Below, in pieces: positions 5,831-14,803 of a stretch of DNA of 43,914 nt (position 1 is its first letter; every line of letters starts with the position of its first letter). Location: positions 657 to 44,570 of the forward strand of contig MFRX01000034.1 in assembly GCA_001784725.1 (NCBI GenBank), written 5' to 3'. This stretch comes from Candidatus Moranbacteria bacterium RIFCSPHIGHO2_02_FULL_40_12b (lineage in GTDB: Bacteria > Patescibacteriota > Minisyncoccia > Moranbacterales > 2-12-FULL-40-10). The notes beneath the pieces were generated by a model. That model did no database searches, was not told the origin of the DNA, and saw only the letters and a list, made by a program, of their open reading frames with translations. A program made the translations under genes and the position numbers.

Positions 5831-6556
5831 ATGAAAAAAAATGCATCTGGCGCGAAACTGGCCTTGCGATACGGTTATGTCCCTTGCCGCTTGGGATTGT
5901 GCGGTCCGGAAGATAAGGGAGAAAAAAAAATTATTATGAATTATCTTTATGGCAAAGATAAGCTGGAATTCGCGGCCAGAAAAATATTAAAAAAATTCAA
6001 AGGCGCGCATCCCTACTACCAATTAATCGCGAAAGCCAGTAAGATTTCCAATCCGCTTGACCAAAAAGTGGTGGAGGCGTATTGGATTGGCAACGGACTT
6101 TTGGATAAAATCAGGATTTCGGAGTTGAAAAAAATGATGACGGAAAAATTTCTGCCATTGGGAAAAATATCTTTGGCAAAGATAAAAAATCTTCCGCCGC
6201 GATCCGTCGCTCATCACAATTTCCATATACTTTTTATCGGTTCGGTTACCGGACGCTTTGAGGCCAATGAAGCGGGGCAGGATATTTGCCGGGTGAGCTG
6301 GGGGAAAGTGATAAGCATTAAAAAAGACAAGATTGTCGTTGAGAGGCAGCCGCTGAAATTTGGAAAAAAAATTTCACTTGACAAACCGGCTGTAAGGGCG
6401 GTATTCTGGGACAGAAAAATCCTGCCGGAGGTGGAAGAAAATGACGTGGTTTCCATCCACTGGAACCACGCCATTGAAAAATTATCCCCGCGCCAGATCA
6501 CGAATATTAAAAAATATACCGGCGATGTCTTAAAAATCATAAATCAAAGGAGGTAA
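5831..6556 (+). CDS. Conserved hypothetical protein (YGYVPCRLGLCGP N-terminal motif); located in the hyp/hydrogenase neighbourhood
   Basis: Long ORF with a GGAG-type RBS. No catalytic motif was recognised by eye. Confidence 0.5.
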   Translation: MKKNASGAKLALRYGYVPCRLGLCGPEDKGEKKIIMNYLYGKDKLEFAARKILKKFKGAHPYYQLIAKASKISNPLDQKVVEAYWIGNGLLDKIRISELKKMMTEKFLPLGKISLAKIKNLPPRSVAHHNFHILFIGSVTGRFEANEAGQDICRVSWGKVISIKKDKIVVERQPLKFGKKISLDKPAVRAVFWDRKILPEVEENDVVSIHWNHAIEKLSPRQITNIKKYTGDVLKIINQRR

Positions 6557-6917: not shown

Positions 6918-7697
6918 ATGCCTGAAAAACAAAAACCAAAAATCGCCATTGTCTCGCTCACTTCCTGCGAAGGATGCCAGTTCGCCCTTTTGGATTTGGG
7001 AGAAAAGTTTTTAAATTTAATGAATCAAGCGGAGATGGTTGATCTTCGGCTCTTGGAAGACGAGGAAGATAAAGGCGAAATGCTGGATATTGGAATCGTG
7101 GAAGGCAATCCAGTGACGGATGATAATGTAAAGACCCTGTTGAATTTAAGGAAACGCTCTAAATTACTGGCAGTTCTCGGAAACTGCGCGGCTATGGGCG
7201 GAATTCCGGAAATAAAAAATTATCATAACAGAGAAACCGCGCTAAAACACGTTTATAAATATATCCAGGGAATTAACAATCCCGAAATCAGGGAAGTGGA
7301 TAATTTCGTGAAAGTGGATTTTACTTTTCCGGGATGCCCCATAACCGGCGAAGAATTTTTGAAATATTTTCCGGAACTTATCGCCGGAAAAGTTCCCCAA
7401 ATTCCAGACCAGCCGGTTTGCGTGGAATGCCGGAAAAAAGGCAACCGATGTCTGCTGTTGGATAAAAAGCCCTGCTTCGGCCCGATGATTCTCGGCGGTT
7501 GCGACGCGGTCTGTCCCACTTCCCGGATGATGTGCCAGGGTTGCCGGGGACTGCGTCCCAAAGGAAATCTGGATGCCATGCGCCACACGCTCAAAGATAT
7601 GATGACGGACGAGGAGTTTGAAAACACGGCGGAAATTTACGGATTAAAAGATGATATAGAATTTAAATCAAAAATCAAAAATCAAAATGCAAAATGA
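6918..7697 (+). CDS. [NiFe]-hydrogenase small subunit (group-3-type, Oxidored_q6-like)
   Basis: N-terminal IAIVSLTSCEGCQ, GNCAAMGG, and C-terminal Cys clusters (CVECRKKGNRC, CFGP, CDAVCP, CQGC). An extended -10 (TGaTAAAAT, 6903-6911) ends only 7 nt before the ATG. Confidence 0.85.
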   Translation: MPEKQKPKIAIVSLTSCEGCQFALLDLGEKFLNLMNQAEMVDLRLLEDEEDKGEMLDIGIVEGNPVTDDNVKTLLNLRKRSKLLAVLGNCAAMGGIPEIKNYHNRETALKHVYKYIQGINNPEIREVDNFVKVDFTFPGCPITGEEFLKYFPELIAGKVPQIPDQPVCVECRKKGNRCLLLDKKPCFGPMILGGCDAVCPTSRMMCQGCRGLRPKGNLDAMRHTLKDMMTDEEFENTAEIYGLKDDIEFKSKIKNQNAK

Positions 7698-7738: not shown

Positions 7739-8716
7739 ATGAAAAAGGTTTTAATCCTCATTTTTATTATAATTGTAGGATTAGGAGTTTATAAATTCAA
7801 AGACGCTATTCCGGACAGAGTGAAAAACCGTTTAGCTGTTGCGGTGAAGGAGAAGAACTGGGAGAATCTTGTGAATGTGGTGATTCCGGGAAAATGCGAT
7901 GAGCCCTTTCAATACTCCATCGGCGGCGTTGATTCCCGATTTAACATAAATCAGGAAGAACTCGCGGCTATCGCGAAAATGGCGGAAAATATCTGGGACA
8001 GCCAAACGGGCAGGAATTTGTTTGAATATAATCCGGACGCGCCGCTGAAAATTAATCTGGTTTTTGACGAAAGGCAGCAGCAGACAATGGCGGCCGAAAC
8101 GCTGGAACAAAAACTGGAGAAGCTGAAGTTGTCGGATGCCGGCTTGAAAAAACAATACGACTTAATTTACGGCGCCTATTCAAAAAAAGTAGACGCTTAT
8201 AATTCTTCGGCAAAGAAATATGAAAGCAAGCTGAATAATTATAATAAAGACGTTATTTACTGGAACCAGCAGGGAGGCGCTCCGCCGGATGAATACGACA
8301 AATTGCAAAAAAGAAAAAAAGACATGGAGGCGATGTTTAAAGACCTTGAAAAAAGAAGAAAGGAAATAAACAATCTCATCGCGGAAATGAATGCTTTGGC
8401 CAATAAGGAAAGCCAGATTGCCGGTGATTACAACTCGGCGGCGGCCACTTACCGCAGCAAGTATGGAGGAAGCCGGGAGTTTGAGAAAGGGATATATAAC
8501 GGCCAGGAAATAAATATCTACCAGTTTGAGGAAAAATCCGACCTGGAACTTACTATCGCCCATGAGCTGGGGCACGCGCTGGGCGCGGGGCATGTGGAAA
8601 ATCCGCAATCGCTCATGTATTATCTGATGGCAGACCAGAATATGGATAAACCGAAACTGACCGTGGAAGATATGAAAGCGTTATCCGAATTGGGATGCGA
8701 ATTATATCCGAATTAA
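7739..8716 (+). CDS. Membrane-anchored coiled-coil protein with C-terminal metzincin-type zinc protease motif
   Basis: N-terminal TM helix, a long K/E-rich helical region, and HELGHALGAGH (HExxHxxGxxH). Confidence 0.65.
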   Translation: MKKVLILIFIIIVGLGVYKFKDAIPDRVKNRLAVAVKEKNWENLVNVVIPGKCDEPFQYSIGGVDSRFNINQEELAAIAKMAENIWDSQTGRNLFEYNPDAPLKINLVFDERQQQTMAAETLEQKLEKLKLSDAGLKKQYDLIYGAYSKKVDAYNSSAKKYESKLNNYNKDVIYWNQQGGAPPDEYDKLQKRKKDMEAMFKDLEKRRKEINNLIAEMNALANKESQIAGDYNSAAATYRSKYGGSREFEKGIYNGQEINIYQFEEKSDLELTIAHELGHALGAGHVENPQSLMYYLMADQNMDKPKLTVEDMKALSELGCELYPN

Positions 8717-8728
8717 ATCCGAATATTT

Positions 8729-9118
8729 ATGGATAAAATTTTGCACAAAGAACTTTCTTATAAAATAAATGGGATATTATTTAAAGTTCATAATAATTTA
8801 GGAAGATTTTGCAAACATGACCAATATTGTGAAGCCGTGGAGTCCATTTTAAAAGAAGAAAAAATAAAATATCAAAGAGAAATTGAAATCCCAATAAAAT
8901 TTAATAACATAAAACTCACAGGCAATATATTAGATTTTTTAATTGAAGATAAATTGGTTTTAGATGTAAAATGTAAAAAAGAAATAACAATTAAAGATTA
9001 TGTTCAAATGAAAAGATATTTAAGAGCAACCGGAAAAAATTTGGGAATTATAGTAAATTTTGCAGAGAAATCGGCAAGGATAAAAAGAATCTTAAATAAA
9101 GATCCGAATAAAAATTAA
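8729..9118 (+). CDS. GxxExxY / PD-(D/E)XK nuclease-like protein (PDDEXK_3-like)
   Basis: The family-typical layout is present: LGxx...E..Y region, D...DVK core (DFLIEDKLVLDVK), Q..RYL, GIIVNF. Confidence 0.6.
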   Translation: MDKILHKELSYKINGILFKVHNNLGRFCKHDQYCEAVESILKEEKIKYQREIEIPIKFNNIKLTGNILDFLIEDKLVLDVKCKKEITIKDYVQMKRYLRATGKNLGIIVNFAEKSARIKRILNKDPNKN

Positions 9119-9145: not shown

Positions 9146-10408
9146 ATGCAAATTCGTATCAACCATATCGCGAAAATGGAAGGGCACGCCGGGTTTATGG
9201 CAAGCGTTCTTCAGGGCGATGTGAAATCGGCCAAGTTAGAAATCCAGGAGGGTATCCGGCTTATTGAAGGAGTGCTAATCGGACGCCATTATAAAGATAT
9301 GCCAGTAATTGCGCAGAGAATCTGCGGAATCTGCCCCGTAGTGCATAATCTGACATCTATCAAAGCGATTGAAAACGCTTTCAGTATTAAGGTTTCCAAT
9401 GAAACGGTAAATTTGCGAAAACTTTTAGAATGGGGACAAATCATCCACTCTCACGCTTTGCATCTATTTTTTCTGTCGCTGGCTGATTTTTTGGATATTG
9501 AAAATGACTTAATATTAACGAAAGAGTATCCGGAAGAAACCAAAAAAGCCATTAAAATCCGCGAGTTTGGAATGTCTATCGTTAAAATTATCGGTGGGCG
9601 GGTAATTCATCCTTTAACAAATGAAGCAGGCGGTTTTAAAAAAATTCCCAAACAAGAGGAATTGCAGGAGCTGATTATTCAAGGCGAGGAAATTCTGCCG
9701 GTGGCGCTGGAAGTGGGAGAATTTTTCAAAAAAATAAAAATTCCAACATTTTCAAGGATGTCAGAGTATGTCTGTTTGGATAAATCCGCCGAATACGCGA
9801 TTTATGACGGCGATATTTCTTCCAATAAAGGGCTTCATATACCGGTGGAAAAATTCGAGAATAATTTCAAAGAACTTCAGCGCCCGCGGGAAATAGTCAA
9901 GAGAGTTATGGCTGACGGGAAAACCAGCTATATGGTGGGCGCCATCGCGAGAGTCAATAACCAGAGCAAAAAACTGAATTACAACGCGGAAAAATATCTG
10001 GAGTCGCTGGGATTTGCGCTTCCGGACTATAATCCGTTCCATAACATCCTTTATCAGATGACGGAGGTTATCCACTGCGTCGAGGAATCACTCAAAATGC
10101 TTCGGATTTTAGCACGCGGCAATTTAGAAAACGCCTTGACTAAAAATTACGAAATCAAAGAGGGTTCGGGAGTGGCAGCGGTGGAAGCGCCAAGGGGAAC
10201 TTTATATTACCATGTTGATATTGACGGCAAGGGTTATGTTAAAAACGTGAATATTATCACTCCCACGGCGCAGTTTTTGTCGCATCTGGAAGACGATGTC
10301 GCGGCCTATATCCCAAGCATTTTAGACCTATCCGACAAAGAAAAAGAAAAAAAACTGCGGGCTTTCATCCGGGCGTATGACCCGTGCATCAGCTGCGCGG
10401 TACATTGA
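9146..10408 (+). CDS. [NiFe]-hydrogenase large (catalytic) subunit, group-3-type
   Basis: The N-terminal Ni-binding motif is RICGICPVVH. The C-terminal motif DPCISCAVH is the very end of the ORF. Confidence 0.9.
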   Translation: MQIRINHIAKMEGHAGFMASVLQGDVKSAKLEIQEGIRLIEGVLIGRHYKDMPVIAQRICGICPVVHNLTSIKAIENAFSIKVSNETVNLRKLLEWGQIIHSHALHLFFLSLADFLDIENDLILTKEYPEETKKAIKIREFGMSIVKIIGGRVIHPLTNEAGGFKKIPKQEELQELIIQGEEILPVALEVGEFFKKIKIPTFSRMSEYVCLDKSAEYAIYDGDISSNKGLHIPVEKFENNFKELQRPREIVKRVMADGKTSYMVGAIARVNNQSKKLNYNAEKYLESLGFALPDYNPFHNILYQMTEVIHCVEESLKMLRILARGNLENALTKNYEIKEGSGVAAVEAPRGTLYYHVDIDGKGYVKNVNIITPTAQFLSHLEDDVAAYIPSILDLSDKEKEKKLRAFIRAYDPCISCAVH

Positions 10409-10643: not shown

Positions 10644-10672
10644 TTGACAGAAAATGATTTTGGGTGTATACT
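10644..10672 (+). promoter_or_regulatory. Sigma70-type promoter of DGR target gene
   Basis: TTGACA (10644-10649), 17-nt spacer, TATACT (10667-10672). Confidence 0.6.
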
Positions 10673-10766
10673 GACAAATTGAGTGAGGTACCTTAATAAA
10701 ACGGCAAATCCGGGACTTTGACATAGGGTCAAAGTGAGAGATGAGCCAAATAAAAGGAGGGACAAT

Positions 10767-11444
10767 ATGTCCAGGAAAAGCAAGAAGGAAGTTGAAGCAA
10801 TTGTTTCAGGGATGGGAGTTTTTATGGCTTTTATTTCTAATCTCGTTGAGCTTGTAAAAAAGTTTGGCGGGACGATGGAAAACATCTATCGGCTGGCAAC
10901 TCCCGATGGAAACGAAACACTGGAGGCGATTGCTCGCATTATTGCCGGCGGAGTGAAAAATGTCAAAAATGAGTTTCTCAAACTAATTTCCGGTAACGAG
11001 ACGCTTGTTATTGACAATTGCGATGGATCAGAGGGTCTTGCAAACGCGAGTGATTTATTCGCGTGGATTGATTCCGATTTCAGAAATTACGGCGCCGATC
11101 AAAAAGGTCAGGCGACCGGCGAAACCTCAGTCCGCGTGCATGAAATGACGAGAAATGCGACTTTTTCACAAATGTTCGTCTCATTGAACGCTGATATGGA
11201 AAAAATTTGCCTTACTCCACATCAGATTAAGAAATTTGTAAAAAAATATCGCAACTGGTTACGAATAGATGGTTATGCGACATTCTTTCTATTTAAATTA
11301 AATAACCAGTTCTTCGTTGCCGGCGTGAGCTTCGACTCTGACGGTAAGCTCCGGGTCTATGTCGACAGGTTCGAGCGCGACAATGTCTGGCGTGCCGAGG
11401 ATCGTCGTCGGGTCGTGGTTCCGCAACTGGATGTCGCTCAATAA
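10767..11444 (+). CDS. DGR target (variable) protein, unknown fold; possible N-terminal signal-anchor
   Basis: SD aaggaggg lies 6 nt before ATG 10767, so the listed GTG 10734 is less likely. The last ~40 codons are the VR. A hydrophobic segment AIVSGMGVFMAFISNLV follows the basic N-terminus. Confidence 0.8.
   Translation: MSRKSKKEVEAIVSGMGVFMAFISNLVELVKKFGGTMENIYRLATPDGNETLEAIARIIAGGVKNVKNEFLKLISGNETLVIDNCDGSEGLANASDLFAWIDSDFRNYGADQKGQATGETSVRVHEMTRNATFSQMFVSLNADMEKICLTPHQIKKFVKKYRNWLRIDGYATFFLFKLNNQFFVAGVSFDSDGKLRVYVDRFERDNVWRAEDRRRVVVPQLDVAQ
11310..11428 (+). repeat. DGR variable repeat (VR)
   Basis: 119 nt matching 11741-11859. All 17 mismatches fall at TR adenines. It is in-frame and encodes FFVAGVSFDSDGKLRVYVDRFERDNVWRAEDRRRVVVPQL. 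Confidence 0.9.
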
Positions 11445-11458
11445 TTTTGTTCTTTTTT

Positions 11459-11510
11459 AATCCCTTGGATTCTTTGACGCTTAGGCGCTTTGAATCCAAG
11501 GGATTTTTTT
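11459..11510 (+). terminator. 14-bp hairpin plus T-run downstream of VR (terminator; possibly also the DGR target-recognition hairpin)
   Basis: aatcccttggattc (11459-11472) pairs with gaatccaagggatt (11492-11505), followed by ttttttt. A promoter-like TTGAAT-16-TATAAT (11490-11517) overlaps the 3' arm. Confidence 0.7.
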
Positions 11511-11740
11511 GTATAATACTATCGCAATCTTGGAAAAATTCGCGGCTACGGCTTCGGGTCAAAGTTGCTGAAAAACGTATTTGAGAATTTCGCCGGATAC
11601 GTCTTGCGGAAGTGTGGATACGTTTTTCAAAATAAAAAAACAGCCAGTTGGTGCGATGAGCTGGAGAACTTCAAGGTTCCAAATAAGATGCAATCCCAAG
11701 AGTATTCAAAGGATGGTGGCATAGATGGCTTGTCGCACAT

Positions 11741-11859
11741 TTCTTCGTTGCCAACGTGAACTTCAACTCTGACGGTAAGCTCAAGGTCAATGTCAACAGG
11801 TTCGAGAACGACAATGTCTGGAATGCCGAGAATCGTCATCGGGTCATAGTTCCGAAACT
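11741..11859 (+). repeat. DGR template repeat (TR)
   Basis: This non-coding copy is the adenine-bearing partner: 33 A, of which 17 are substituted in the VR. Weaker, indel-containing homology to the target gene extends upstream (11721-11740 vs 11265-11284). Confidence 0.9.
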
Positions 11860-11874
11860 TGCTGATTCTCTCGC

Positions 11875-12177
11875 TCACTTGCTGGGCGAGAGTTTCTTAT
11901 CCAGTCCTCGTTTCCAACCGCCCAGCATCCGTCCGATTTCTTCCAGTTTTTGCGAAAGATTTATGTATTTTTCATTCGGAACAAGTTTGTTTTCCCATGC
12001 CAGTTGCAGAAAAAATTTCAAAACATCCAGTCGGGATATGGCTTTCCCCAGCAAAATTATTTTATGCTCCGGAGGAAGATAGGAAGCGGTAAAACTTAAT
12101 TCTAAAATTTCTAAAAATAAATTATCAATTCTTCTCCCGATTCCATAGCGCTCGGTTTTGGGGAAATCACGATGCAA
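11875..12177 (-). CDS. avd: Avd-like accessory variability determinant (four-helix-bundle / 23S rRNA IVS protein family); N-terminus uncertain
   Basis: FPKTERYGIG and the C-terminal EEIGRMLGGWKRGL resemble Avd/four-helix-bundle proteins. The TTG start gives 100 aa. The frame stays open 27 more codons upstream without a canonical start. Confidence 0.75.
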   Translation of the reverse strand: MHRDFPKTERYGIGRRIDNLFLEILELSFTASYLPPEHKIILLGKAISRLDVLKFFLQLAWENKLVPNEKYINLSQKLEEIGRMLGGWKRGLDKKLSPSK

Positions 12178-12309
12178 AATCAGCCAGTATTGATACGCTT
12201 CTTTTTCTTTTATGATTACGGCCGGCGAGGTCTTGGGGGGGGGGTCATAATAGTCATAAGTTTAAAATTTCCGCCAAAGGCGGATCCGCCAGTGGCGGAA
12301 AAAATCAAA

Positions 12310-13320
12310 ATGCAAAATAAAAAGGCAAAATTTGGAAAAAAATACGATGAAATTATTTCTTTGGATAATCTTTTGGAAGCCTGGAAAGAATTTTTGCAAG
12401 GGAAGCGGAACAAGAAAGATGTCCAAATTTTCCAAATGCGCTTAATGGACAATATTTTTGCGCTTCACGATGACCTCAATAATTTAACATATAAGCACGG
12501 CGGATATCAAGCGTTCAAAATCAATGACCCCAAGCCAAGAGATATCCATAAGGCCGCAGTGAGGGATCGGCTTTTGCATCACGCCATTTACAGAATCCTT
12601 TATCCTTTTTTTGAAAAAACATTCATTGCTGATTCATATTCTTGCCAACTCAATAAAGGGACGCATAGAGCGATTAATAGATTTAGAAAATTCTCATACA
12701 AGGTCAGTCAAAACAATATAAAAACCTGCTGGATATTGAAATGCGACATCAGGAAATTTTTCGCCAATATCAACCATGAAATTTTGCTTGGAATTTTAGC
12801 TCAATATGTTCCGGACAAAAATATATCACGGTTCCTTGAAGAAGTAGTCGGCAGTTTCAACACTAAAGGAAAGGATGATGTTGGATTACCGCTCGGAAAT
12901 TTAACCAGCCAGCTTTTCGTGAATATTTATATGAATAAATTTGATCAGTTTGTGAAACACGGATTAAAGGCGAAATATTACATTCGCTACGCCGATGATT
13001 TTGTGATTTTTTCGGGAGATAAAGAATGGCTGGAAGATAGAATCGAAACCATGCGAAATTTTTTGCGAAACGAATTAAAACTGGAACTCCATCCGGATAA
13101 AGTTTTCATAAAAACATTGGTTTCAGGATTGGACTTTTCGGGCTGGGTGAATTTTTGTGATCACAGAGTTTTGCGGACGGCGACCAAGAGAAGGATGATG
13201 AAAAGAATATCGGAGAATCCAAGTCCGGAGACATTGAATTCATATTTGGGGATGCTGGGGCATGGGAACGCGGAAAAGTTGAGAGAGGATATTTTTAATA
13301 ATTTTGTTTATAAGTTATAA
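12310..13320 (+). CDS. DGR-type reverse transcriptase
   Basis: LGNLTSQLFVNIY ((I/L/V)GxxxSQ, the DGR RT signature), YADD catalytic box (IRYADDFVIF), size about 336 aa. The start is set to ATG 12310. The listed 12172 start adds a low-complexity extension through the G10 tract. Confidence 0.9.
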   Translation: MQNKKAKFGKKYDEIISLDNLLEAWKEFLQGKRNKKDVQIFQMRLMDNIFALHDDLNNLTYKHGGYQAFKINDPKPRDIHKAAVRDRLLHHAIYRILYPFFEKTFIADSYSCQLNKGTHRAINRFRKFSYKVSQNNIKTCWILKCDIRKFFANINHEILLGILAQYVPDKNISRFLEEVVGSFNTKGKDDVGLPLGNLTSQLFVNIYMNKFDQFVKHGLKAKYYIRYADDFVIFSGDKEWLEDRIETMRNFLRNELKLELHPDKVFIKTLVSGLDFSGWVNFCDHRVLRTATKRRMMKRISENPSPETLNSYLGMLGHGNAEKLREDIFNNFVYKL

Positions 13321-13327
13321 TAATGGC

Positions 13328-13603
13328 GTGCACGACTTCTTATTAGCTAAACAAATAGTAGGTGATGTCCTGAAAGTTTCCAATAAAAAGGGATTAAAAA
13401 ACATCAAGTCCGTTTCCTTGGAAATCGGCAGTGTTTCGCTTACTCATGATAGTTTTAATGAGCACGCGGAAGATATAAATCTGGAAAATTTAAAATTCGG
13501 GATTGAAAGCATTGCGAAAAATACGGTTTTAAAGGACACTAAATTTAATATAAAGAAAACAGAAGGGGACAGTTGGAAAATAACGGGAATTGAGGTAGAA
13601 TAG
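13328..13603 (+). CDS. hypA: HypA-like hydrogenase nickel-insertion protein lacking the zinc-finger domain
   Basis: GTG start gives N-terminal MHD (compare the MHE Ni-binding motif). A..IV, VSLEIGSVS and C-terminal ITGIEVE match the HypA layout, but the protein has no cysteine. Confidence 0.6.
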   Translation: MHDFLLAKQIVGDVLKVSNKKGLKNIKSVSLEIGSVSLTHDSFNEHAEDINLENLKFGIESIAKNTVLKDTKFNIKKTEGDSWKITGIEVE

Positions 13604-13810: not shown

Positions 13811-14803
13811 GTGATCAAAATAGCAATAAATGGTTTTGGAAGAATAGGGAGACCGTCGCTCAAAATCGCGCTGGAAAAAAAAGGCATTGATGTGGTCGCC
13901 ATCAATGATTTAACCGACATTAAAACCGCGGCGCATCTTCTGAAATACGATTCGTCCTATGGAATTTATCCAAAATCAGTGGAGGCGGACGGGGAAAATT
14001 CGGAACTGATTATTGATGGCGTGCGGATAAAATATTTCAAGGAACCAGATCCGGAAAAACTTCCCTGGGGGGATTTGGGCGTGGATATCGTTCTGGAATG
14101 CACGGGTATCTTTGAAACCAAAGAAGACGCGGGAAAGCACTTAAAAGCCGGCGCCAAAAAAGTGATTCTTTCCGCGCCGCCCAAGGATGATATTCCGGTA
14201 TATTTATTGGGAGTTAACGAAAATGACTACCAGGAAGAGGATATTATTTCTAACGGATCCTGCACCACCAATTGCCTGGCGCCTATAATAAAAGCGCTGG
14301 ATGATAATTTTGGCGTGGAAAAGGGATTTATGACCACTACTCATTCTTACACTAACGATCAGCGATTGCAGGACATGCCTCACAAGGATTTAAGAAGAGC
14401 CAGAGCGGCGGCGCAAAATATCATTCCCACCACGACCGGCGCGGCCAAAACCGTCGGAAAAGCCATTAAGCACTTAGAAGGAAAATTGGACGGTATTTCT
14501 CTTCGTGTTCCAACGCCTGTTGTTTCAATAGTTGATTTTATCTGCAATTTGAAAAAAGAAGCGAATGTTGAGGAAATTAATAATGCTTTCAAAAGCGCTT
14601 CAGAAAATGAACTGAAAAATATTTTAACCGTTTCAGATGAACCACTGGTTTCCATGGATTACAAAGGCAATCCGCATTCCGCGATTGTGGACCTTCCGCT
14701 TACGATGGCCAACGGAAATCTGGCGAAAGTCGTCGGCTGGTATGACAATGAGTGGGGATATTCAAATAGATTAGTAGAACTAGCGCAATTTGTAAGCAAA
14801 TAA
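13811..14803 (+). CDS. gap: Glyceraldehyde-3-phosphate dehydrogenase
   Basis: INGFGRIGR, SCTTNCLAP (catalytic Cys), WYDNEWGYS. Confidence 0.95.
   Translation: MIKIAINGFGRIGRPSLKIALEKKGIDVVAINDLTDIKTAAHLLKYDSSYGIYPKSVEADGENSELIIDGVRIKYFKEPDPEKLPWGDLGVDIVLECTGIFETKEDAGKHLKAGAKKVILSAPPKDDIPVYLLGVNENDYQEEDIISNGSCTTNCLAPIIKALDDNFGVEKGFMTTTHSYTNDQRLQDMPHKDLRRARAAAQNIIPTTTGAAKTVGKAIKHLEGKLDGISLRVPTPVVSIVDFICNLKKEANVEEINNAFKSASENELKNILTVSDEPLVSMDYKGNPHSAIVDLPLTMANGNLAKVVGWYDNEWGYSNRLVELAQFVSK

Follow-up and report, generated by a model that had tools for sequence, protein, structure and literature searches.

The 43,914-nucleotide stretch of Candidatus Moranbacteria bacterium RIFCSPHIGHO2_02_FULL_40_12b analyzed here (contig MFRX01000034.1; the whole stretch is hereafter the window) carries at positions 10644-13320 a genuine and complete diversity-generating retroelement (DGR), which is chromosomal in a host belonging to the Moranbacteria (Patescibacteria, or candidate phyla radiation, CPR). 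DGRs are the source of the largest known protein sequence variation. An earlier reading of the letters alone had called a complete DGR at this locus, and the parts of such an element were all found, namely a reverse transcriptase (RT), an accessory variability determinant (Avd), a variable region (VR) and template region (TR) that differ specifically at adenines, and a hairpin past the VR. The kind of DGR is already known, as it belongs to the CPR clade and has architecture B3, while its distinctive traits are a variable scaffold that does not look lectin-like, a compact TR RNA with a structured leader, and a G tract with a hypermutable appearance. We consider it probable that the locus operates by the mechanism proposed below. 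The main components of the cassette are as follows.

10767..11444, plus strand: target (variable protein) gene, 225 aa, an open reading frame (ORF) with 359 homologues and AlphaFold2 models
11310..11428, plus strand: VR, 119 nt, residues 182-221 of the 225-aa target
11741..11859, plus strand: TR, non-coding, 119 nt, with 33 adenines, 19 adenine-containing codons and 9 AAY codons (Y, pyrimidine)
11875..12219, minus strand: avd, with a canonical-start ORF at 11875-12177 (100 aa, TTG) and homology to ~12219
12310..13320, plus strand: DGR RT, 336 aa (R77, L195-GNLTSQ, YADD), with an RVT_1 match and homology to the RT of Bordetella phage BPP-1 (bRT)

The cassette thus reads target-TR-(avd)-RT, with avd on the minus strand and the rest on the plus strand, which is the published architecture B3, TR-(avd)-RT, described by Wu et al. 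2018 (PMC5758913).

A base-by-base comparison of the VR with the TR gave 17 differences, and 17/17 were located at TR adenines (12 A>G, 4 A>C, and 1 A>T), whereas 0/86 non-A positions of the TR differed from the VR. The probability that 17 of 17 mismatches fall on the 33 A positions by chance was 7e-12 (hypergeometric). Every number that had been given for this repeat pair in the sequence-only reading was reproduced, and a recount of the altered codons again yielded 12, which include 8 of the 9 TR AAY codons. The homology between VR and TR ended abruptly on both sides, with the first non-A mismatch at 11429/11860, and the VR starts at a codon boundary of the ORF 10767-11444. The altered target residues were 186/188/190, 196/198/200, 204, 209, 212, 214, 217, and 220, and with its 19 variable codons the TR could encode ~10^18 protein variants. 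No second VR was found in the window when both of its strands were scanned with tolerance at adenines.

For the RT, the LGNLTSQ and YADD motifs read earlier at 12310-13320 were both present in the translation. DGR RTs carry the signature [I/V/L]GxxxSQ in RT domain 4, in contrast to the QGxxxSP of group II and retroviral RTs (PMC7826257), and the LGNLTSQ of the window RT fits the former and not the latter, with the catalytic YADD box present. The bRT residues R74 and I181 promote adenine mutagenesis (PMC7826257), and the equivalents of both were kept in the window RT when aligned with bRT. The two RTs shared 29% identity over the full length (E 2e-45; BPP-1 is locus L036), and the best match of the window RT among the PDB sequences was 8ub7 with 132 bits, which was checked to be BPP-1 bRT and is therefore the closest solved structure; the next matches, group II-type RTs, scored ≤72 bits. 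A tblastn search of the RT against phage genomes matched 177 records, among them those of Bordetella phages, of ANMV-1, and of crAss-like phages. Judged from its motif and similarity scores, the RT is of the DGR type. A longer ORF, which opens at 12172 and extends across the G tract described below, was ruled out as giving the true RT start, since the orthologues begin past the tract.

The Avd-like gene had been placed at 11875-12177. Its identity was upheld by the Pfam family bAvd, which matched with 51-55 bits (51 for the ORF 11875-12177) against a gathering score of 40; its limits were not, as this ORF is only a part of the gene and the homology reaches ~12219. The NCBIfam model DivGenRetAVD matched with 64-69 bits (64 for the ORF 11875-12177), under its cut-off of 80, and the extended ORF covers positions 3-103 of the 104 of this profile. 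When the ORF was extended to 12234, the profile aligned from its position 3 at the sixth residue of the extension, so that the true N-terminus is expected near the GTA-ATC at 12219-12214. The Avd-homologous frame remained open to 12261, with no ATG, GTG, or TTG upstream of the TTG at 12177. The likely start is therefore the ATC at 12216-12214 (or the ATA at 12213-12211) within the conserved GTA-ATC, as predicted from the sequence; ATC is a permitted start codon of translation table 11. At the predicted start position, GTG was found in L004 and L008, and TTG in L024 and L028. Two ATGs at 12257-12246 on the minus strand were out of frame with Avd across the C10 tract, and the short ORF beginning at them ends at a TAA inside the conserved GTAATC (12219-12214). 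An Avd start at these ATGs just 5′ of the C tract was regarded as less likely, because in 11 of 12 loci their frame is not that of Avd, and because the profile begins past the tract.

To compare the cassette with its relatives, about 40 related loci (labelled L002-L041) were collected, with a 12-sequence alignment among the searches used. All of the loci long enough to contain a TR had the same cassette, and the order target-TR-(avd)-RT was common to all those with a complete cassette. Strictly A-only VR/TR pairs were found in L002, L004, L005, L006, L008, L009, L010, L011, L026, L033, and L039, and a few non-A mismatches in L007, L024, L028, and L038. Two of the loci, L026 and L030, came from different JGI metagenomes, and their alignment of 3,185 nt contained 17 mismatches and one 1-nt indel; 17/17 mismatches were within the VR and 17/17 at TR-adenine positions, while the other ~3.07 kb were identical. 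Differences confined to the VR and to TR adenines indicate that this DGR lineage is active in nature. Accordingly, the earlier statement that the element has been active holds for the past, as the 17 A-specific differences of the window make its past activity certain, while ongoing diversification was seen solely in the relatives L026 and L030. The sole near-identical sequence to the window was L037, whose contig ends 161 nt past the target gene; it shared 99.2% identity, with 38 substitutions in 5.8 kb, and its VR was identical to that of the window.

The 38 substitutions between the window and L037 were clustered in a few short patches (6954-6959, 7547-7586, and 8518-8638) inside the Oxidored_q6 and Peptidase_M10 genes, which suggests recombination or a mixed strain consensus. 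In L002, from a Moraniibacteriota metagenome-assembled genome (MAG), the Avd homology starts from residue 15 and the RT homology from residue 37, only 8 nt apart (6460-6480); the G tract is gone and the 5′ ends of avd and RT are deleted, with the VR/TR pair still strictly A-specific (10 differences), and this DGR copy is probably defunct. L007 is LBQD01000003 of Moranbacteria GW2011_GWE2_35_2-, a groundwater CPR MAG in GenBank, so the lineage may already be catalogued.

Further elements of DNA and RNA were assigned around the repeats.

10644..10672, plus strand: sigma-70-like target-gene promoter, TTGACA-17-TATACT, 11/12 in a consensus scan (a consensus match only)
11403..11458, plus strand: proposed element like the initiation of mutagenic homing (IMH) site, formed by the VR end and its flank, with the G+C-rich CGTCGTCGGGTC and then GTTCCGCAACTGG; the TR counterpart is GTTCCGAAACTTG
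11459..11510, plus strand: 14-bp hairpin (11459-11472 with 11492-11505) followed by T7, 30 nt past the VR, a predicted terminator of the target gene
11490..11517, plus strand: promoter-like site for the TR RNA, TTGAAT-16-TATAAT, from a consensus scan
11524..11740, plus strand: structured non-coding 5′ leader of the TR RNA, from alignment A4 and RNAalifold
11866..11901, plus strand: post-TR hairpin CTCTCGC...GCGAGAG (11866-11892) followed by a U-rich run, from a terminator scan and covariation

In most of the loci, the VR ended with GTTCCGCAACTGG and the TR with GTTCCGAAACTTG, with A>C and T>G as the fixed differences. By analogy with the IMH/IMH* of BPP-1, a distinction of this type between recipient and donor is proposed as the function of this element. 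As the difference is recurrent, mutagenesis may not be the origin of the A>C at 11424, which may instead be a fixed marker. The 14-bp hairpin past the VR was kept in 10 of the 10 loci examined, with compensatory changes in its stem, and it is a candidate cruciform for target recognition. Its 3′ arm overlaps the -35 of the promoter-like site for the TR RNA, and the TGTATAAT/TATATAAT element of this promoter was conserved across the loci.

Though non-coding, the leader (~215 nt) was conserved more than the flanking proteins. Its structure was evaluated on alignment A4, which comprises 11 loci from the predicted +1 to just past the TR and for which RNAalifold gave 90 pairs. Three helices were predicted in the leader, P1 (11538-46/11551-59), P2 (11570-11628), and P3 (11651-62/11727-38), the last of which encloses hairpins at 11666-79 and 11693-11714. 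Over the whole TR RNA (leader, TR, and terminal hairpin), 97.4% of the cells were paired vs. 41-58% in slid controls, and 20 pairs were changed on both sides vs. 2-9 in the controls; the observed values were reached by 0 of 500 shuffles. Insertions were confined to loops, that is, a 20-nt self-complementary insertion lies exactly in the P1 loop of L005 (5796-5815), and an 8-nt insertion at the P2 tip of L004 and L005, as a real RNA structure would tolerate. The leader, the P3 stem, and the terminal hairpin were also present, with more compensatory changes, in L009 and L033, which have a different TR/VR domain, indicating that the leader is independent of the TR content, and this fits a recognition module for RT and Avd. 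A pairing predicted by RNAalifold between the leader (11643-11649) and the TR 3′ end (11856-11862) is not claimed, as L009 and L033 showed one compensatory change and one broken pair.

The post-TR hairpin lies 7 nt past the TR, where it overlaps the stop codon of the oppositely oriented avd. It covaried across the loci, including L009 and L033, and its scan score was terminator-like, so that it may end the TR RNA, act as a priming element resembling the BPP-1 spacer, or do both. When IMG/VR was scanned for an invariant leader motif, 19 matches were obtained, which were attributed to chance as none (0) matched the hidden Markov model of the DGR RNA; this leader-motif scan of IMG/VR thus gave no evidence of the DGR lineage in viral contigs.

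The diversified target protein consists of an N-terminal hydrophobic helix plus two helices (residues 6-60), followed by a 155-aa alpha/beta domain (~68-222) that bears the VR. Its 359 homologues contained no Pfam domain, and those with names were from MAGs of Moranbacteria, Parcubacteria, or Patescibacteria. The C-terminus of the family follows the pattern FFVAxVxxxSDGxLxVxVxRFExxxVWxAExRxRxVVPQLA, in which an invariant scaffold alternates with hypervariable positions at the TR AAY codons. A profile search over 1.84 billion cluster representatives revealed that the family of the 155-aa domain is large, with at least 2,726 clusters (50% identity) reaching E≤1e-3 and 889 reaching E≤1e-30; no credible Pfam domain was found in 10 sampled members (0/10). 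The ~155-aa C-terminal module occurred alone (152 aa), behind diverse N-termini, or as 2-3 tandem copies. In the tandem-copy members P0121 (476 aa), P0122 (560 aa), P0128, and P0130, every copy ends with a VR-like PQL/PKL motif.

AlphaFold2 modelled the whole target with a predicted local distance difference test score (pLDDT) of 86, exceeding 90 at residues 70-222, and the 155-aa domain alone with a pLDDT of 93.9 and a predicted template modelling score (pTM) of 0.90. Foldseek searches of the target model against the PDB gave a best E of 0.4-0.7 (0.69 for the 155-aa domain) and query-normalised TM scores of ≤0.24, and the solved DGR variable proteins, which should be in that library, were not among the matches; a search against BFVD returned nothing. 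Consistently, hhalign of the target family against Mtd gave a probability of 0.1%, no CLec-type Pfam family was detected in 48 family members even at E≤1, and a profile search of the family against the PDB sequences returned noise only. Similarity of the VR domain to CLec, FGE-sulfatase, DUF1566, Mtd, or TvpA was thus found neither in sequence nor in structure. No immunoglobulin (Ig) family or Ig structure was among the target matches, and the model is alpha/beta. Weak matches to the Pfam family POTRA_2 in 6 of the 48 members were treated as noise, as Foldseek gave them no backing.

In the model, residues 186/188/190 and 196/198/200 alternate on two adjacent antiparallel strands joined by an SDGK turn, so that these altered residues should line one face of the hairpin; the loop that comes next holds residues 204, 209, 212, and 214, the last strand holds 217, and 220 comes immediately after that strand. 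On this predicted structure, we lean toward the VR domain being a new scaffold that is neither lectin nor Ig, in which a beta-hairpin face and a loop are varied and which has no structural neighbour. Annotated VRs are systematically found in folds of the C-type lectin kind (C-Lec), and unknown VRs are presumed to be new C-Lec variants (PMC8144416), while the CPR VR classes UVR1-6 were left with no assigned fold (PMC5758913); the window target family is probably among these unassigned classes. The Kyte-Doolittle mean over 19 residues was 1.85 at residues 12-30 of the target, and 37 of the 48 members, including the window protein, had an N-terminal 19-residue stretch with a mean hydropathy of ≥1.6, suggesting that the N-terminal helix is a probable membrane anchor.

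The targets at 5001-5666 of L009 and 73-717 of L033 carried the N-terminal module of the window protein (62 and 39% identity, respectively), and their loci shared its leader RNA, Avd, and RT. The VR domains at the C-termini of these two targets were quite different from that of the window, and also had no Pfam match. VR scaffolds thus appear to be swapped as modules inside one DGR lineage.

At the junction of avd and RT, one more element was found.

12235..12244, plus strand: G10 homopolymer, which reads C10 on the avd strand and lies upstream of both the Avd N-terminus (by 15 nt) and the RT start (by 65 nt)

No other run of G or C in the 43.9-kb window exceeds 6, and the number of runs of ≥10 expected there is 0.016; the equivalent tract accounts for nearly all of the G/C runs ≥8 in 212 kb of related loci, always with G on the plus strand. 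The tract was G9-G11 in most of the loci (L004 6485-6495, L006 2666-2675, L007 6457-6465, L014 5457-5466, L009 6535-6544, L010 4021-4029, L026 5474-5483, L029 3419-3428, L038 4963-4971, and L039 4985-4995), G6-G7 in L024/L028, interrupted in L008, and deleted in L002. Its position was constant at 8-15 nt before the Avd N-terminus in Avd proteins down to 40% identity; L009 has a G10 tract despite an Avd only 40% identical. The tract is clearly under selection as a nucleotide sequence. As to its role, the data accommodate a phase-variable switch, an element of the untranslated region (UTR) or promoter, and length differences that are merely sequencing errors. In the published CPR DGR literature searched, no description of the conserved leader RNA or of the G tract was found.

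In the mechanism that we propose, the promoter at 11490-11517 would drive a non-coding RNA of ~375 nt composed of the structured leader, the 119-nt TR, and the terminal hairpin with its U-run. RT and Avd would bind this TR RNA and reverse-transcribe the TR, with random bases placed opposite the template adenines, and the resulting cDNA would then take the place of the VR (11310-11428) in the 3′ part of the target gene; the direction of this transfer would be given by the fixed difference at the VR/TR 3′ boundary and by the hairpin past the VR. Up to 19 codons could thereby vary (~10^18 proteins), mostly on one face of the C-terminal beta-hairpin and in the following loop, and the N-terminal hydrophobic helix would probably tether the 155-aa domain to the membrane, making the target a surface protein that binds ligands.

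Two other explanations of the locus were weighed. That it is not a DGR, and that a chance or recombinational duplicate of a gene 3′ end lies beside an unrelated RT of a group II intron, retron, or defence system, is improbable in the extreme. The top NCBIfam model for the RT was indeed the group II intron RT/maturase TIGR04416 (132 bits), but this score is far under the cut-off of 300 and the NCBIfam models matching the RT include no DGR RT model; the retron, Drt, and Abi models of NCBIfam were likewise all far under their cut-offs. A search of the window with Rfam at gathering thresholds matched only tRNAs and no group II intron or retron RNA. Moreover, the A-specific pattern, with its chance probability of 7e-12, recurs in more than 10 independent loci, and an Avd gene is present. 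The other explanation accepts a real DGR that is now silent or decaying in this genome, with the 17 A-specific differences as a record of past activity, and we judge it unlikely, yet in need of consideration. It would account for a VR that is the same in L037 despite 38 substitutions elsewhere and for an Avd with no canonical start and with out-of-frame upstream ATGs, and decay did occur in the relatives, as L002 lost the 5′ ends of avd and RT, L007, L024, and L028 acquired non-A mismatches, and L040 and L041 retain orphan targets. However, all of the parts in the window are intact, with a full-length RT bearing YADD and a non-A drift of 0/86 between TR and VR; L026, with the same C10 configuration and a stop just upstream of the tract, is demonstrably diversifying; and L037 is possibly from the same population as the window. 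A DGR that operates by the proposed mechanism is the reading that we prefer, and the window copy may still be active.

Several points weigh against this reading or parts of it. The absence of a canonical start at the homologous N-terminus of Avd, with the nearby ATGs out of frame, makes Avd expression uncertain, and the identical VR of L037 gives no sign of ongoing diversification in this organism. The predicted pairing between the leader and the TR 3′ end is not backed by covariation. The non-lectin conclusion comes from a predicted structure and Foldseek, and the lectin folds of DGR proteins are very divergent; the core order of the modelled domain, strand-helix-helix-strand-strand-strand-strand, is loosely lectin-like. 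The membrane anchor was assigned from hydropathy.

An additional possibility concerns regulation, namely that the G tract gates the DGR, with slipped-strand or transcriptional slippage switching Avd or RT on and off and so making the hypermutation phase-variable; we hold this as a tentative idea of rather low probability. The conservation of G9-G11 in most loci of genomes with ~40% G+C, the persistence of the tract at the same place across Avd proteins down to 40% identity, and its near monopoly of the long G/C runs in the related loci are in its favour. So is the comparison of L007 with L014, two assemblies of the same Moranbacteria genome, in which G9 vs. G10 was the sole difference in 6,151 nt, as well as that of L024 (C6), where the upstream ATG is in frame, with the 96%-identical L028 (C7), where it is out of frame. 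Our literature search found no paper that links DGRs with homopolymer tracts. Homopolymer length differences, however, are also typical of sequencing and assembly errors. Start codons upstream of the tract are absent or at variable distance, and since the ATGs just 5′ of it are out of frame with Avd in 11 of the 12 loci, these loci would be "off". In L008 the tract is interrupted and non-slippery, and a GTG start follows it, and L026 (C10) is diversifying although an Avd-frame stop immediately before the tract closes the upstream frame. The Avd profile begins past the tract, which may instead belong to a 5′-UTR or a promoter, or have a role in the RT transcript of the plus strand.

With respect to the genomic setting, the cassette of the window and of L002 is located between a NiFe-hydrogenase large-subunit gene (9146-10408 in the window) and a hypA-like gene (13304-13603; HypA match of 24.6 bits, under the gathering score), followed by a GAPDH gene (13811-14803). 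The cassettes of L038 and L039 adjoin other, unrelated genes, and the orphan targets of L040 and L041 have no RT, avd, or TR within 3.5 kb. The varied neighbours and the orphan targets together indicate that the cassette moves as a unit and is sometimes lost. A gene of the PD-(D/E)XK nuclease family (PDDEXK_3, 86 bits) was observed at 8729-9118 of the window, between a peptidase gene and the hydrogenase large-subunit gene, and the same peptidase/PDDEXK_3/hydrogenase large-subunit arrangement was present in L002 and L037.

The VRs of DGRs are held to sit in C-type lectin folds, a scaffold tolerant of such variation (Roux et al., 2021, PMC8144416), so a family of at least 2,726 clusters with no structural neighbour would provide a second natural scaffold for massive variation, and with just 155 aa the domain would be of interest for binder engineering. 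From such a family one would also learn what it is that ultrasmall episymbiotic bacteria diversify at the cell surface. For studies of template recognition by RT and Avd, the compact TR RNA with a predicted promoter, a conserved leader, and a terminal hairpin could be a tractable alternative to the BPP-1 RNA, and gating by the G tract, if true, would be the first hypermutation device switched by a contingency repeat.

Compared with the prototype DGR of Bordetella phage BPP-1 (mtd-avd-TR-brt), the window element has an RT homologous over its full length (29% identity) with the [I/V/L]GxxxSQ signature, and a homologous Avd. As in BPP-1, the target gene carries its VR at the 3′ end, VR and TR differ specifically at adenines, a hairpin lies past the VR, and RNA segments flank the TR, which is 119 nt in the window and 134 nt in BPP-1. 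In contrast to BPP-1, the window avd is on the opposite strand and between TR and RT; a dedicated, structured non-coding leader takes the upstream position in the TR RNA, instead of the 3′ end of the avd mRNA; and the TR is directly followed by a hairpin and U-run. Further, the window target does not resemble Mtd (hhalign 0.1%), no C-type lectin fold was detected in it, and the element is chromosomal in a CPR bacterium instead of residing in a phage.

The G tract resembles the contingency loci of Neisseria, Campylobacter, and Haemophilus in being a G/C run of 9-11 at a gene 5′ end or divergent promoter that varies in length among sequences otherwise the same, but differs from them in that the frame logic is inconsistent across the loci of the window type and the gene controlled would be a mutator accessory factor, not a surface antigen. 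The target shares with the lectin-fold DGR proteins (Mtd, TvpA, AvpA, and TaqVP) a C-terminal VR, variable residues at AAY codons amid an invariant scaffold with an invariant Trp, and the prediction that the variable residues form one contiguous surface. Unlike these proteins, the window domain has no match in sequence or structure, and its variable residues would form a flat sheet face plus a loop. Close counterparts are the CPR DGRs ("clade 2" of Roux et al., 2021; the "CPR set" of Wu et al., 2018), which have the same host group, the same architecture, and small uncharacterised targets. The surveys of these CPR DGRs left the VR fold undetermined or presumed C-Lec variants (PMC5758913, PMC8144416), whereas for the window target a confident model was obtained, and it is unlike any solved fold.

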